The notes: generated by a model not told the origin, from the sequence alone. A stretch of 64,000 nt of DNA from an uncultured Acidobacteriota bacterium (GCA_963697835.1 CAVOPG010000004.1:84616-148615), one strand, 5' to 3'. Positions 57,743 through 61,902 are shown, counted from the first letter of the stretch. Numbers and translations are program-made.

Positions 57743-57846
57743 GGCGTGCGTGCTCCTACTGTCGCGCGGCCCCGCCGGGCTCGGCGGCGAAATCCGGAGA
57801 GTCGCTGGCTGATCGTGGTCGGATGAAGGAGGAGGCTACCACAAGC

Positions 57847-57889
57847 GGACCGCTCCTGGCCGGGGTAGCCTGGATACTGGCCCGGTGCA
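57847..57889 (+). promoter_or_regulatory. conserved 43-nt promoter/operator-like motif, copy 1
   Basis: GGACCGCTCCTGGCCGGGGTAGCCTGGATACTGGCCCGGTGCA. GATACT (57873-57878) is followed 6 nt later by GTG start 57885. Copy 2 at 60857 matches at 38 of the 43 positions. Confidence 0.45.
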
Positions 57890-59621
57890 CCGATCGGGAG
57901 ACGCCCCTTGGAGACCACTGGCCGGGCTTCCGGTGCTGCTCCTCGACGCGCAGGCCACCGCGTCCGATCCGGCACGCGGGGAGCTCGTCGAGATCGGCTG
58001 GGCGCGCGGGCCGGCGGGCGGGACCGGCGAGCTGCCCGCCGCCGAGGTGACCGCCCACATCGTAGCGCCGCCGCCCGGGGCCGTCGTGCCGCCCGCCGTG
58101 GCCCGGCTCACCGGGGTGCGCACCGCGGAGTGGGCGTGCGGGATTGCGCCTTTCCAGGCCTGGACTCTCCTCCGGCACGCGGCGGAGCGGGTCGCGCCGC
58201 CGCCCGTGCCTGTCGTCATCCACTTCGCCCGCTTCGAGGAGCCGTTCCTGCGTGCGCTGCACGAGCGCCACGGGGCGGGGGCGTTTCCCCTAAACCTCGT
58301 CTGCACGCACGCCATCGCCTGCCGGCTGCTCCCGGAGCTGCCCCGCCGCACGCTGCGCGCCCTGGCCGGCTACTTCGGGGCCGCGGTGCCGCCGCTGCGA
58401 CGCAGCGCCGACCACGTGGTCGCCACGGCGTTCGTGTGGCACCACCTGGTCGCGCTGCTGGCCGAGCGCGAGGGCGTCGTCGGCCTCACCGACCTGCGCG
58501 ATTGGCTGGCGCGGTCGGCCCGCCGCCGCTCCCCTCGCTCCTTCCCGCTGCCGCGCGAGCGACGCCTCCGTCTGCCCGACCGCCCGGGCGTCTACCGGCT
58601 GCTGCGCGCGGGCGGCGCCGTGCTCTACGTCGGCAAGGCAGCGTCCGTGCGCCACCGCGTGAGCGGCCACTTCCACGCGCGCGCGGGTCAGGGCGAGCGC
58701 GCGCTGGAGATGCTCACGCAGGCCCGCGACGTGTCCTGCACCGAGACGGAGACCGCGCTCGAGGCGGCCCTGCTCGAGGCGGACGAGATCAAGCGGCTGG
58801 CCCCGCCTTTCAACGTCGCCCTGGCGGCGTGCGGTCGGGCAGTCTGGTTCGCGACGGCGGACCTGCGTGGTCTACAGGACGGACCGGACCCGGAGCACGC
58901 CATGGGCCCGCTCGTCTCGCCGGCACCCCTCGAGGCGCTTTCGGCGGTGCGCGCCGCGCTCGCTGGCGGCAGACCCTTCTCGGCCCCGCTCTCCGTGCGC
59001 TCCCGTGCCGTCGGGGTCGAGCCCGCCTACGGGCCCGATCCGGGGTGCTTCGCCGCCGGGCTCGCGCGGTTCGTGCACGACCACGGATTGGTAGCGAGCC
59101 CGCGCGACCTCCTCCGGCTCGGCGGGCGGCTGTGGGCGCGTCGACGTCCCGCGATCGCGAGCGTGTCCGAGCCCGGGCCGGACGACGCGGTCGTGGAGGA
59201 GCCGCGGACGCCACGCCGGCCCGCCTGGGATGACGAACGTGTGACGCGAGCGCTGGAGGAGACGGTCGTTCGCGCCGCCCACGCCGTGCGGCGCGCGCGC
59301 TGGCTCGTCCGCCTCAGCGAGTGCTCGCTCGCCTGGGCCGAGCCGGGGGCGGAGAGGCTCCGCTTGCTGGTGATCCAGGGCGGCGCGGTGGCCGCCAGCG
59401 TGGACCTCGAGCCCGGCACGCCCGTGCCGGCTCCTCCCGGACACGCGCGCACGCCCGCCGAGCGACGCACGGCCTTCGACGTGGCCACCTTCGACCGACT
59501 CCGCGTGCTCACCACGGAGCTGCGAGTCCTCGTGGACGGGGCCACCTACGTCGAGCTGCGACTGGGGCTCCACGCGCGGTTGTCCCGGGAGCGGCTGCGG
59601 GCGGTGCTGCGGTGGGTGTGA
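57885..59621 (+). CDS. DnaQ-like 3'-5' exonuclease domain + GIY-YIG nuclease domain + ~300-aa uncharacterised C-terminal region
   Basis: The N-terminus VLLLDAQATASDP...ELVEIGW is DEDD-exonuclease-like, with D-A-Q in place of D-x-E. The middle part PGVYRLLRAGGAVLYVGKAASVRHRVSGHF ... EAALLEADEIKRLAPPFN is GIY-YIG. Confidence 0.7.
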   Translation: MHRSGDAPWRPLAGLPVLLLDAQATASDPARGELVEIGWARGPAGGTGELPAAEVTAHIVAPPPGAVVPPAVARLTGVRTAEWACGIAPFQAWTLLRHAAERVAPPPVPVVIHFARFEEPFLRALHERHGAGAFPLNLVCTHAIACRLLPELPRRTLRALAGYFGAAVPPLRRSADHVVATAFVWHHLVALLAEREGVVGLTDLRDWLARSARRRSPRSFPLPRERRLRLPDRPGVYRLLRAGGAVLYVGKAASVRHRVSGHFHARAGQGERALEMLTQARDVSCTETETALEAALLEADEIKRLAPPFNVALAACGRAVWFATADLRGLQDGPDPEHAMGPLVSPAPLEALSAVRAALAGGRPFSAPLSVRSRAVGVEPAYGPDPGCFAAGLARFVHDHGLVASPRDLLRLGGRLWARRRPAIASVSEPGPDDAVVEEPRTPRRPAWDDERVTRALEETVVRAAHAVRRARWLVRLSECSLAWAEPGAERLRLLVIQGGAVAASVDLEPGTPVPAPPGHARTPAERRTAFDVATFDRLRVLTTELRVLVDGATYVELRLGLHARLSRERLRAVLRWV

Positions 59622-59669
59622 GGGCCGACTTGTGTGAGCCGGCGCGATCGTCCAAGCTACGGAGCGGCG

Positions 59670-60824
59670 ATGGCCCTGTCGACGATCCGTCGGCTAGCTG
59701 AAGTGGCTCGGCGGGTCGGCGAGGCGGCCCGGCGGACACCCCGCCTGACGGTGGCCCTCATGATGCTGGCCACCACGCTGCTGGTCTGGGCGCCCTTCCT
59801 CGGCCGGCGCGAGGTGCTCTACGGCTACTGGGACGGCCCCCACTACGTCTATCTGGCACGGACCCTGTACGACGTGCCCGCCGAGCATCCCTTCGCGGCC
59901 TACGGCCTCACGCCGCCCTATTACGCGACGCACCTCCCCGCCTATCCGCTGCTCATCCGGGCCCTGGCGGTGGTGACCCTCGGCCACTACCTCCCGGCGA
60001 TGCTGCTTGCGACCCTCGTGAGCTCCATGGCGGCCGCCGTCCTCTTCCACGAGGTCCTGGTGCGGTTCGAAATGGTGCGCTCGCCCCTGTGGACGGCCAT
60101 CCTGTTCGCAGTGCTGCCGCCCCGGTGGGTCGTCTACCACTCGGTCGGCGCGAGCGAGCCTCTCTTCTTGTGTTTCGTGTTCCTGGCCCTGCTGGGCTAC
60201 CGGGCCCGTCGCCCCTGGGCGTTGGTGTCGTTCATCGCCCTGGCGTCGCTCACGCGGATCATGGGCGTGCTGCTCGTCCCCGCCTTCGTCGCGTCCGCTC
60301 TTCTCGAGCGGCGCTTCCGGGAGGCGCTGCTCACCCCCCTCGCCCTCCTCGCGACCCTGGGCCTCTTCCTCTGGCACCTCTACCTCTACGGCGACTTCTT
60401 CGCGTACTTCACGCGGAACCTGGTGCACGCCGGATACATGTCGCGCCGTCCGCTGCTCAACTTCTTCGCCTACGCCGACGCGGGAGTCGCCCACAGCGCC
60501 GAGCTCCATCTCGCTCTGTTCATCGTGTACGGGCTGGGCACCCTGGTCCTCGTCAAGCACCGGCCCGTCTTCACCCTTGCCCTCACCTTCTTCGTCTTCA
60601 ACCTCTTCGTGCTCCACTCCGACCTCTCACGTGTGTTCCTGCCCCTGGCTCCCTTCGCCTTGCTCGTCGGCTTCGACGGCGTGCTGTCCCAACGGGCCTG
60701 CCGATGGGCCCTGCCCTTCCTCGTCTACCTTGGTTGCGTCTACGCGTGGCACGTGATCCCGCACAACCTCGTGGTTGCCCCGGTCTACCAGGCGCTCCTG
60801 CGCGCCCTCGCCCCGTCCCCCTGA
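59670..60824 (+). CDS. polytopic membrane protein (GT-C/PMT-like glycosyltransferase fold suspected)
   Basis: About 10 hydrophobic helices. ATG 59670 follows GGAG, and the track ORF starts at GTG 59634. Confidence 0.5.
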   Translation: MALSTIRRLAEVARRVGEAARRTPRLTVALMMLATTLLVWAPFLGRREVLYGYWDGPHYVYLARTLYDVPAEHPFAAYGLTPPYYATHLPAYPLLIRALAVVTLGHYLPAMLLATLVSSMAAAVLFHEVLVRFEMVRSPLWTAILFAVLPPRWVVYHSVGASEPLFLCFVFLALLGYRARRPWALVSFIALASLTRIMGVLLVPAFVASALLERRFREALLTPLALLATLGLFLWHLYLYGDFFAYFTRNLVHAGYMSRRPLLNFFAYADAGVAHSAELHLALFIVYGLGTLVLVKHRPVFTLALTFFVFNLFVLHSDLSRVFLPLAPFALLVGFDGVLSQRACRWALPFLVYLGCVYAWHVIPHNLVVAPVYQALLRALAPSP

Positions 60825-60856
60825 GGACGAAGCTCGTGCCGGACGCCGGAGCGAGT

Positions 60857-60899
60857 GGACCGCTCCTGGCCGGGGTGCGCCGGATACTGGCCTGGTGCG
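60857..60899 (+). promoter_or_regulatory. conserved 43-nt promoter/operator-like motif, copy 2
   Basis: GGACCGCTCCTGGCCGGGGTGCGCCGGATACTGGCCTGGTGCG. GATACT (60883-60888) is followed 6 nt later by GTG start 60895. Confidence 0.45.
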
Positions 60900-61902
60900 A
60901 GTGCTGTTCGTCTCCGACACCCACCTCGGCTTCGACCTGCCCGCACGGCCACGGGTCGAGCGGCGCCGCCGTGGCCCCGACTTCTTCGCCTGCTTCGCCC
61001 GCGCTCTCGAGCCCGCGCTGCGCGGTGAGGCCGACGTCGTCGTCCACGGCGGGGATCTGCTGTACCGCAGCCGGGTCCCGGCCTCGCTCGTCTACCGCGC
61101 GCTGCAGCCTTTGCTGCGAGTCGCCGACCTCGGGGTGCCCGTCCTGCTCGTCCCTGGAAACCACGAGCGCGCCGCGATCCCCTACCCGCTCCTGGCGGCG
61201 CATGAGCACCTTCACGTGTTCCATGGCCCGTCCACGGTCGTGGTCGAGCGGCGGGGGCTGCGCGTGGCATTCGCCGGTTTCCCCTGCGCGCGCGCCGTGC
61301 GCCGCGCGTTCCCGGCGCTGCTCGCCGCCACGGGCTACCGCGAGGGAGAGGCGGACGCGCGGGTCGTCTGCATCCACCAGTGCGTCGAAGGAGCCACGTG
61401 CGGGCCGCCGCCCGGGTACACGTTCCGGGACGGGGACGACGTGGTGCGGGCGGGCGACCTTCCGGATGACGCGGCCGTGGTGCTCTCCGGGCACGTGCAC
61501 CGGCACCAGGTCCTCCGTCGCGACCTCCGCGGGCGACCCCTCCCCGTGCCGGTCGTCTACGCGGGCTCGGTGGAGCGAACGTCCTTCGCGGAGCGGGACG
61601 AGGTCAAGGGCTTCGTGATGGCCACGATCGGCAGCGGGAGGCCGGGTGGGCGTCTCGTCGCCTGCGAGTTCCGGCCGCTACCCGCCCGCCCGATGCGCGT
61701 GCACGAGGTGACCGACGCCTCTGCCGCCTGCCTGGAGCGCGAGATCCGCGGCGCGATCGCGGCTTTCCCGCCGGACGTCGTGCTTCAAGTGCGCGTGAGC
61801 GAGGCCCTGGCCGGCGCCGAGCCGCTCCGCGCGGCTCGTCTCCGCGCGATCGCCCCACCCACCGCGAACGTCACCGTCTCCGTTCGCCCGGGTTACCGTT
61901 GA
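60895..61902 (+). CDS. Mre11/SbcD-like calcineurin-family metallophosphoesterase (DNA-repair exonuclease type)
   Basis: Phosphoesterase motifs are VLFVSDTHLG, HGGDLL, PGNHE and SGHVHRH. Confidence 0.75.
   Translation: MRVLFVSDTHLGFDLPARPRVERRRRGPDFFACFARALEPALRGEADVVVHGGDLLYRSRVPASLVYRALQPLLRVADLGVPVLLVPGNHERAAIPYPLLAAHEHLHVFHGPSTVVVERRGLRVAFAGFPCARAVRRAFPALLAATGYREGEADARVVCIHQCVEGATCGPPPGYTFRDGDDVVRAGDLPDDAAVVLSGHVHRHQVLRRDLRGRPLPVPVVYAGSVERTSFAERDEVKGFVMATIGSGRPGGRLVACEFRPLPARPMRVHEVTDASAACLEREIRGAIAAFPPDVVLQVRVSEALAGAEPLRAARLRAIAPPTANVTVSVRPGYR

Follow-up and report, generated by a model that had tools for sequence, protein, structure and literature searches.

A probable duplicated promoter without a -35 element at a nuclease gene pair of an uncultured acidobacterium, and a putative repair-gene regulon in the order Vicinamibacterales

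The stretch of DNA considered here, called the window below, comprises 64,000 nt of one strand of the genome of an uncultured Acidobacteriota bacterium (GCA_963697835.1 CAVOPG010000004.1:84616-148615; the 6.96-Mb assembly is designated G000, and window positions are counted from the first letter of the stretch). Toward its end lie three consecutive genes, here called A, M and B (Table 1), and a nearly identical sequence of 45 nt is present immediately before A and again before B. Gene A matches the PRK07883 "DEDD exonuclease domain-containing protein" models of NCBIfam over residues 21-315 (E 2e-39) and the UvrC/Cho GIY-YIG region (E about 1e-15); the combination of DEDD and GIY-YIG domains is also the architecture of mycobacterial Rv2191 (PMC11348249). 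Gene B encodes a calcineurin-like phosphoesterase with Mre11/SbcD-type matches. A previous reading of the window made from the sequence alone had called these genes DnaQ-like/GIY-YIG and Mre11/SbcD-like, and family matches of both kinds were indeed found, but all of the NCBIfam matches, for A as for B, fall below the curated cut-offs. The first exonuclease motif of the gene A protein (residues 17-25, window 57930-57960) reads LLLDAQAT, with D-x-Q where D-x-E is the usual form; because the D-x-Q is common to its orthologs, the DEDD domain may be catalytically inactive.

Gene M is of a different character. It encodes a polytopic membrane protein whose single family match, to cell-surface glycopolymer proteins (AZOBR_p60025-type), is weak. 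Its G+C content is 0.67-0.69, versus 0.75-0.78 for A and B, and its start is probably the ATG at 59670, which lies behind a GGAG, rather than the GTG at 59634. No homolog of M is present in 16 same-genus genomes, and the best match (52%) is in another family; an attempt to trace the origin of the gene turned up no close homolog.

Table 1. Genes and promoter elements of the A-M-B region (positions in the window; promoter numbering with the -10 hexamer taken as -12 to -7)
Feature	Position	Strand	Basis or remark
Distal box CGGACC, copy 1 (~-39 to -34)	57846..57851	+	21-nt spacing invariant in 12 orthologous loci and 6 metagenome loci
Proximal box CTGGCC (nnGRCC), copy 1 (~-29 to -24)	57856..57861	+	CTGACC/CTGGCC in closest relatives
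-10 GATACT, copy 1	57873..57878	+	Fixed distance from CGGACC across genera
Gene A, DEDD-exonuclease-like + GIY-YIG nuclease (PRK07883/Rv2191-like)	57885..59621	+	NCBIfam matches; orthologs 59-83% identical
Gene M, polytopic membrane protein, apparent lineage-specific insert between A and B	59634..60824	+	Weak AZOBR_p60025-type match
Distal box TGGACC, copy 2	60856..60861	+	Within duplicated 45 nt; TGGACC also at recA in five relatives
Proximal box CTGGCC, copy 2	60866..60871	+	Same as copy 1
-10 GATACT, copy 2	60883..60888	+	Same as copy 1; 6 nt 5' of GTG 60895
Gene B, Mre11/SbcD-like metallophosphoesterase, own predicted leaderless promoter	60895..61902	+	Pfam Metallophos match from residue 1

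The repeat was originally described as a 43-nt motif with copies at 57847-57889 and 60857-60899 of the plus strand, 38 of whose positions were said to be identical. A recount gives 37 of 43, and a repeat search of the window extends the repeated segment to 45 nt (57844-57888 and 60854-60898). The perfect 20-mer GGACCGCTCCTGGCCGGGGT that was reported to be common to both copies is exactly so, and several other parts of the description hold as they stood: GATACT lies exactly 6 nt before a GTG in each copy (GTG at 57885 and at 60895), neither GTG is preceded by a GGAGG-type Shine-Dalgarno sequence, and no TTGACA-like hexamer is found 17-18 nt upstream of the -10 in either copy. Four of the six differences between the copies fall within a 5-nt stretch of the spacer that varies among close relatives too. 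When up to three mismatches are allowed, the 20-mer has two matches in the window where 0.06 are expected, and at up to two mismatches the same two sites are the only ones in the whole genome. The repeat is real, and a chance origin is excluded. A genome-wide repeat or REP (repetitive extragenic palindromic)-like element is ruled out, as the 20-mer exists in two copies only.

Comparison with relatives indicates that the 43-nt motif is a complete promoter, made up of a distal box, a proximal repeat, a -10 of the housekeeping type and a start codon at the predicted start of transcription. In 12 gene A loci from four genera of the family, (C/T)GGACC lies exactly 21 nt upstream of the -10 (which is GATACT, GACACT, GAGACT or TAGGGT), and the sequence of the spacer has diverged. 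The start codon shifts as well, from 6 nt after the -10 in this genus to 17-30 nt elsewhere, and in the genera with the longer leader gene A stands in several cases behind a GGAG-type Shine-Dalgarno sequence. It is this invariance of the spacing, while both spacer sequence and start-codon position change, that argues for a promoter and not some other element. When 133 sites taken from eight genomes within the family are profiled, a second, weaker element emerges, with G, G/R, C and C at positions 12-15 counted from the start of CGGACC. This nnGRCC is a direct repeat of GACC (motif positions 2-5) placed 10 bp downstream of it, and it ends 11 nt before the -10, with its G-R-C at -27 to -25. The conserved elements add up to the core (C/T)GGACC-N4-nnGRCC-N11-(T/G)AnnnT, with no -35 box and often with the start codon 6 nt after the -10; the promoter in the window, which reads CGGACC gctc CTGGCC ggggtagcctg GATACT, fits this grammar.

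Neither the two window copies nor the 133-site profile contains a TTGACA-like hexamer at 16-19 nt. At 238 sites of this genome that are candidates for ordinary leaderless promoters, TTGAC stands 17-18 nt before the -10, and only two of the 238 have GGACC at the position that it occupies in the motif, which rules out GGACC as the general -35 sequence of the organism. The proposal that an upstream factor site takes the place of a -35 element is in good agreement with the fixed 21-nt spacing in the 12 loci. The identity over 20 nt reflects recent duplication, not binding-site width, and likely only ~10 of the 20 identical bases would be read by the factor. In a comparison by eye, none of the sigma-54, sigma-28 and extracytoplasmic function (ECF) consensus sequences fits the spacing or the conserved positions, and a MerR-type operator in the spacer was ruled out by the observation that the GC palindromes of the spacer are not kept between species.

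At both A and B the distance of 6 nt from -10 to start codon, with no Shine-Dalgarno sequence, lies within the 5-8 nt by which leaderless genes are recognized. The leaderless geometry pointed out at the outset is also kept beyond this genome, as the GTG 6 nt after the -10 recurs in those relatives whose operon is leaderless, namely members of the genus and close metagenome loci. In most of them it opens an 8-codon upstream open reading frame (uORF), the TGA of which overlaps the gene A GTG start as GTGA; this holds for four genomes of the genus and three loci from metagenomes, the first codon being GTG or ATG (for example, VHRSGDAT*; window 57885-57911; loci L021-L025 and L178-L180). In G000 and in G004 the same GTG is in frame with gene A, i.e., the uORF is fused to A. 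In all, about a dozen relatives keep the GTG, either as an in-frame start or as the start of an 8-codon uORF. Such a pattern is the trace that a real leaderless start would be expected to leave, with the uORF presumably coupled to A by termination-reinitiation, and the mRNAs of A and B are accordingly predicted to be leaderless, with transcription starting at the start codon.

Orthologs of gene A are present in 5 of 16 same-genus genomes and in 42 of the 401 class members sampled, as well as on metagenome contigs with up to 83% identity. Over 25 related loci have B directly after A and a single copy of the motif, 5' of A; these include five same-genus genomes, further loci of the family and the class, and nine metagenome contigs (A 64-83% identical). 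The gap between the A stop and the B start is 11-55 nt wherever B is present in relatives, and there B begins at the same codon as in G000 or two codons later. In two relatives gene B has a possible Shine-Dalgarno sequence, with a clear GGAGG in G008. The order A-M-B and the second promoter copy occur in G000 only among all loci examined, and every other one has the empty site, that is, A and B without M and without the second copy. Because relatives have A and B adjacent with no M and a single motif copy, gene M and the second promoter copy appear to have been inserted between A and B in this lineage. The second promoter copy ends at the GTGC of the gene B start; GTGC is common to the A start and the native B start, the latter being GTGCG in relatives. 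A plausible course of events would begin with one promoter driving a two-gene operon of A (DEDD/GIY-YIG nuclease) and B (Mre11-like phosphoesterase). A foreign membrane-protein gene, M, would then have entered between them, and a 45-nt promoter copy would have been joined exactly at the gene B start codon by way of the GTGC microhomology, so that gene B, which has no ribosome-binding site here, could again be expressed, now from a predicted leaderless transcript.

The alternative first put forward for the two copies, that they are direct repeats bracketing a 3-kb module, is correct insofar as they flank a lineage-specific rearrangement (M plus a promoter copy), but the module carries no signs of a mobile element. 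Taken further, this idea would make the copies the scar of a local rearrangement, a 3-kb insertion or duplication of A plus M, in which the second copy has no regulatory role. The adjacency of A and B with a single copy in relatives does imply that the second copy arose by rearrangement, and a 20-nt identity is far above what members of a regulon need. Nevertheless, such a scar seems improbable. The limits of the copied stretch are exactly the distal box on one side and the start codon on the other, and it joins the B start in register; gene B has lost any ribosome-binding site; and the differences between the copies spare both boxes (as (C/T)GGACC and nnGRCC), the -10 and the start codon. In addition, no transposase or integrase domain is found in A, M or B, and there is no target-site duplication at the A-M block, where the sole long direct repeat is the promoter itself.

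The same promoter grammar is found elsewhere in the genome and in related genomes. Within each genome GGACC-N21-GATACT is confined to the A operon, and it is too strict as a regulon pattern; relaxing the -10 to TAnnnT revealed the regulon. In G000 the pattern CGGACC-Nk-TAnnnT (k, or the number after N, being the spacing between box and -10) has 21 sites at k=21, as against 2-10 sites (mean 5.1) at k=14-18 and 23-29, which gives a Poisson P of about 1e-7 for k=21; there are 10, 11 and 3 sites at k=19, 20 and 22, respectively. The TGGACC variant shows no genome-wide enrichment in G000. Downstream genes were taken as those with a start within 50 nt of the site and were named by NCBIfam. The N21 sites of G000 include those before genes for DNA topoisomerase III (topB), PriA, DNA polymerase IV (dinB), DprA and PcrA/UvrD, and further ones before an imuB-like Y-family gene next to lexA and genes for an integron integrase, ClpS and ComM/YifB; N20 sites precede genes for PolX, Ku and a RapA-like helicase. 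Membership of the regulon beyond the genes checked in relatives is provisional.

In G000 the box before recA stands at N22. The form (C/T)GGACC-N21-TAG(G/C)AT precedes recA in 15 relatives, which belong to two families, and GGACC-N21-CA(G/C)ACT does so in most of the third-family genomes examined. Beyond the order, the recA promoter is of the canonical type, TTGACT-N17-TAGAAT. Motif genes in G163, a genome of another genus, are dinB, topB, uvrD/pcrA, priA, the imuB-like gene and a gene for an HD-domain (dGTPase-like) protein; those in G025, a genome of another family, are recA, comM, dprA and a DinB_2 protein gene. The whole-genome scan for enrichment upstream of repair genes that accompanied the sequence-only reading as a proposal has thus been run, and a regulon of repair genes is what it found. 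As judged by these comparisons, this is a promoter class that extends across the order Vicinamibacterales and stands before recA and about a dozen other repair genes, and it points to a previously undescribed damage-type regulon without a LexA box.

Several features of the promoter are of the activator type: there is no -35, the distance to the -10 is fixed, and two direct repeats stand at a 10-bp period. A dedicated putative activator would bind the two tandem boxes and so enable the housekeeping holoenzyme of RNA polymerase to use a promoter that lacks a -35. DNA damage would be the trigger, as the gene content suggests. The combination of a duplicated promoter, an order-wide repair regulon and a putative activator is the best explanation of the whole, and we consider it probable.

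If CGGACC were instead the -35 that an alternative sigma factor recognizes at repair genes alone, a bipartite motif with fixed spacing, specific to a functional set of genes, would also be expected, and TGGACC and CTGACC do resemble -35 hexamers. We regard this as rather unlikely, however, for the -10 sequences are of the housekeeping type (TAGAAT, TAGACT, TACAAT), the boxes lie 21 and 11 nt from the -10 and hence outside the 16-19-nt reach of factors of the sigma-70 family, and two phased direct repeats suggest a protein that binds in tandem.

It is a little harder still to see the boxes as the operator of a repressor (a second LexA-like protein, for example) that masks the -35 region as long as there is no damage. 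Some LexA clades (alphaproteobacterial) bind direct repeats. Two LexA genes are present in G000, the promoter of the imuB-like gene lies just 3' of one of them, and the genes of the putative regulon overlap those of the LexA/SOS system (recA, dinB, imuB, uvrD, integron integrase). The lexA beside the imuB-like gene, however, is that of the class-wide LexA, which extends beyond the motif-bearing order and is ruled out as the reader of the boxes; a classical CGAAC-N4-GTTCG box stands at the promoter of the extra lexA paralog itself and is the only strict box found in promoter position, and no LexA palindrome of the GAAC-N4-GTTC type is present at A, B or recA. Neither LexA would therefore appear to explain the order-specific motif. 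Moreover, operators are not usually at a fixed distance from the -10, a spacing that indicates activation and not repression, and promoters without a -35 would be weak when derepressed. An element that acts in the RNA, as a leader structure or riboswitch-like element of both genes, is scarcely credible: the sequence is kept right up to the start codon, but neither copy folds with better energy than shuffled sequence does (z = 0.27 and -0.85), there is no Rfam match, the changes in the spacer between species are not compensatory, and conservation is limited to short boxes at promoter distances.

A candidate for the putative activator is P0004 (G000:C2:933142-934125), the one intact HTH-WYL-WCX gene of G000, which also has a frameshifted second copy. 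In the four same-genus genomes searched (G000 and three others) P0004 is the only WYL gene apart from that frameshifted copy; each of them and the f2 genome has one intact WYL gene of the P0004 type (G013 has one further WYL hit), and P0004 is present in all 16 high-quality genomes of the sample of relatives and is a core gene in the order. Among proteins of solved structure it is closest to DriD (E 1e-12) and PafBC, and two arginines of the recognition helix are kept. In this genus P0004 faces a zinc-ribbon gene and a nucleoside operon, and a different coding gene lies upstream of it in other genera. Phyletic pattern, neighborhood and recognition helix gave nothing decisive toward P0004 as a proven regulator, and the assignment of the boxes to it is a doubtful one.

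Among known systems the promoters controlled by PafBC (RecA-NDp promoters) in mycobacteria and other Actinobacteria come closest, as the sequence-only reading had suggested. They read tGTCgg-N10-tAnnnT with no -35 and with GTC at -27 to -25, and the mode of activation has been termed "sigma adaptation" (PMC8635444); the mycobacterial PafBC regulon includes sbcD and adnAB (PMC11348249). The resemblance extends to the architecture, in which recA and repair genes follow promoters that have a canonical -10 but lack a -35 and keep a specific upstream box at constant spacing, next to a separate LexA system, to the G and C of the proximal box here at -27 and -25, where PafBC reads GTC, and to the SbcD/Mre11-like gene that parallels the mycobacterial sbcD. 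It does not extend to the sequence of the box, of which only G-27 and C-25 coincide, since CGGACC and nnGRCC form a direct repeat of 10-bp period extending to -39 and PafBC recognizes a single tGTCgg at -28 to -23. The phylum is also different, and a search for PafB/PafC-type regulators, which had been advised, found no PafB/PafC pair and one WYL gene.

DriD of Caulobacter and DdaA of Moraxellaceae are homodimeric WYL activators of SOS-independent damage regulons, and their boxes are palindromic (CGAC-N7-GTCG and CGWCA-N5-TGWCG, respectively), that of DdaA lying ~50 bp 5' of the start (PMC12340889, PMC12392091). They share with the present case a damage-type regulon, putative here, that is activated independently of LexA, and P0004 is nearest to DriD. 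The boxes here differ in being direct repeats that abut the -10 region, and no conserved inverted half-site was found upstream of the box. In Pho-box (PhoB) and SARP promoters tandem direct repeats stand in place of the -35. Their arrangement is similar in that two direct repeats with a 10-11-bp period replace the -35 and the proximal one is ~10 bp from the -10, but they differ in box sequence and in the genes controlled, and the motif is not tied to any regulator of the OmpR or SARP type, none having been searched for.

Some observations weigh against the explanation favored here. The A-M-B order has been seen in a single metagenome-derived assembly that contains many frameshifts, and the -10 hexamer at A and at B has G as its first base, which makes it weaker than TAnnnT. 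Some of the motif hits are due to chance; the site near ruvB, for example, lies inside the coding end of ruvA and is not conserved, and ruvB was rejected as a member of the regulon. There is no conserved CGGACC site beside P0004, and an identical recognition helix is found in P0004 homologs of families with the canonical recA promoter. As to the state of the assembly, conserved genes are frameshifted across G000 (recA, priA, uvrD, topB, ku and the imuB-like gene); these frameshifts fit indel errors of the assembly and explain the low estimate of its completeness (65%).

LexA-independent damage regulons driven by an activator are known in Actinobacteria (PafBC), Caulobacter (DriD) and Moraxellaceae (DdaA). 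A search of the literature found neither the motif nor any damage regulon independent of LexA described for Acidobacteria, which are among the most abundant phyla of soil. The promoter grammar is concrete and testable, and with its gene list, recA included, it should allow the regulator to be found. The locus in the window would also be a natural example of promoter duplication, in which a compact leaderless promoter was placed at the exact start codon of a gene separated from its operon, and the integron integrase and competence-type genes have this box in common with recA and further repair genes. A more speculative picture, possible though hardly to be counted on, is that the Vicinamibacterales have a second response to damage (or to single-stranded DNA) that is free of LexA boxes, in which a putative factor binds tandem GRCC boxes at -37/-27 and replaces the -35 contact of sigma. 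In such a picture recA, translesion polymerases, the end-joining genes ku and polX, dprA and comM for DNA processing of the competence type, and the integron integrase would belong to one program of "genome repair and plasticity," and the window would show a portable 45-nt promoter cassette rescuing a gene cut off from its operon.

A number of individual sites deserve mention. The integron integrase gene (TIGR02249, E 2e-67) at G000:C8:38120 lies behind CGGACC-N21-TACGGT; in other bacteria the integron integrase is LexA-controlled. The segment G000:C2:168150-169240 contains, in this order, the class-wide lexA, a small DUF3467-like gene (assigned by eye), a CGGACC-N21-TACACT leaderless promoter and the imuB-like gene. 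A near-consensus site at G000:C2:572710 (CGGACC tgcc CTGACC ... TAGGCT) precedes a gene with a strong Shine-Dalgarno sequence for a 55-amino-acid membrane peptide, which recalls SidA and DidA, small damage-induced inhibitors of division. Just 5' of the recA CGGACC box there is a conserved CGCTTTTYCTTCGC (L067-L079; G000:C2:1104250-1104450), TTTCGCC repeats fill the promoter spacer of the class-wide lexA, and recA promoters outside the order read TTGACTTTCGC; these elements could be the operator of the class-wide LexA.

In other acidobacterial families (L046, L047, L049, L051, L052, L058) gene A stands behind a near-perfect 14-bp palindrome, CTCGCTTAAGCGAG, which takes the place of the CGGACC box, and the -10 in these loci is TAATCAGAT. 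A longer repeat, CGGACCTTCGCTGTCCGTTCGCC, is present in four copies in G000 (G000:C1:612231, C2:521045, C3:194261, C7:264135), 5' of small or unknown genes. The CGGACC-N21 sites at C2:510642 and C1:613101 precede RelE/ParE-like toxin genes (identified by eye; no Pfam match), and each is on the same contig as a copy of CGGACCTTCGCTGTCCGTTCGCC, 1-10 kb away. Finally, two families without a Pfam match recur behind the motif in different genomes: one of ~270 amino acids that begins ...RLDP(F/W)AA(D/E)Y (G000:C8:887336, L153), and one of ~40-50 amino acids that begins VLTD(D/A)(E/D)A(E/D)EIR (G000:C3:55730, L163, L166).

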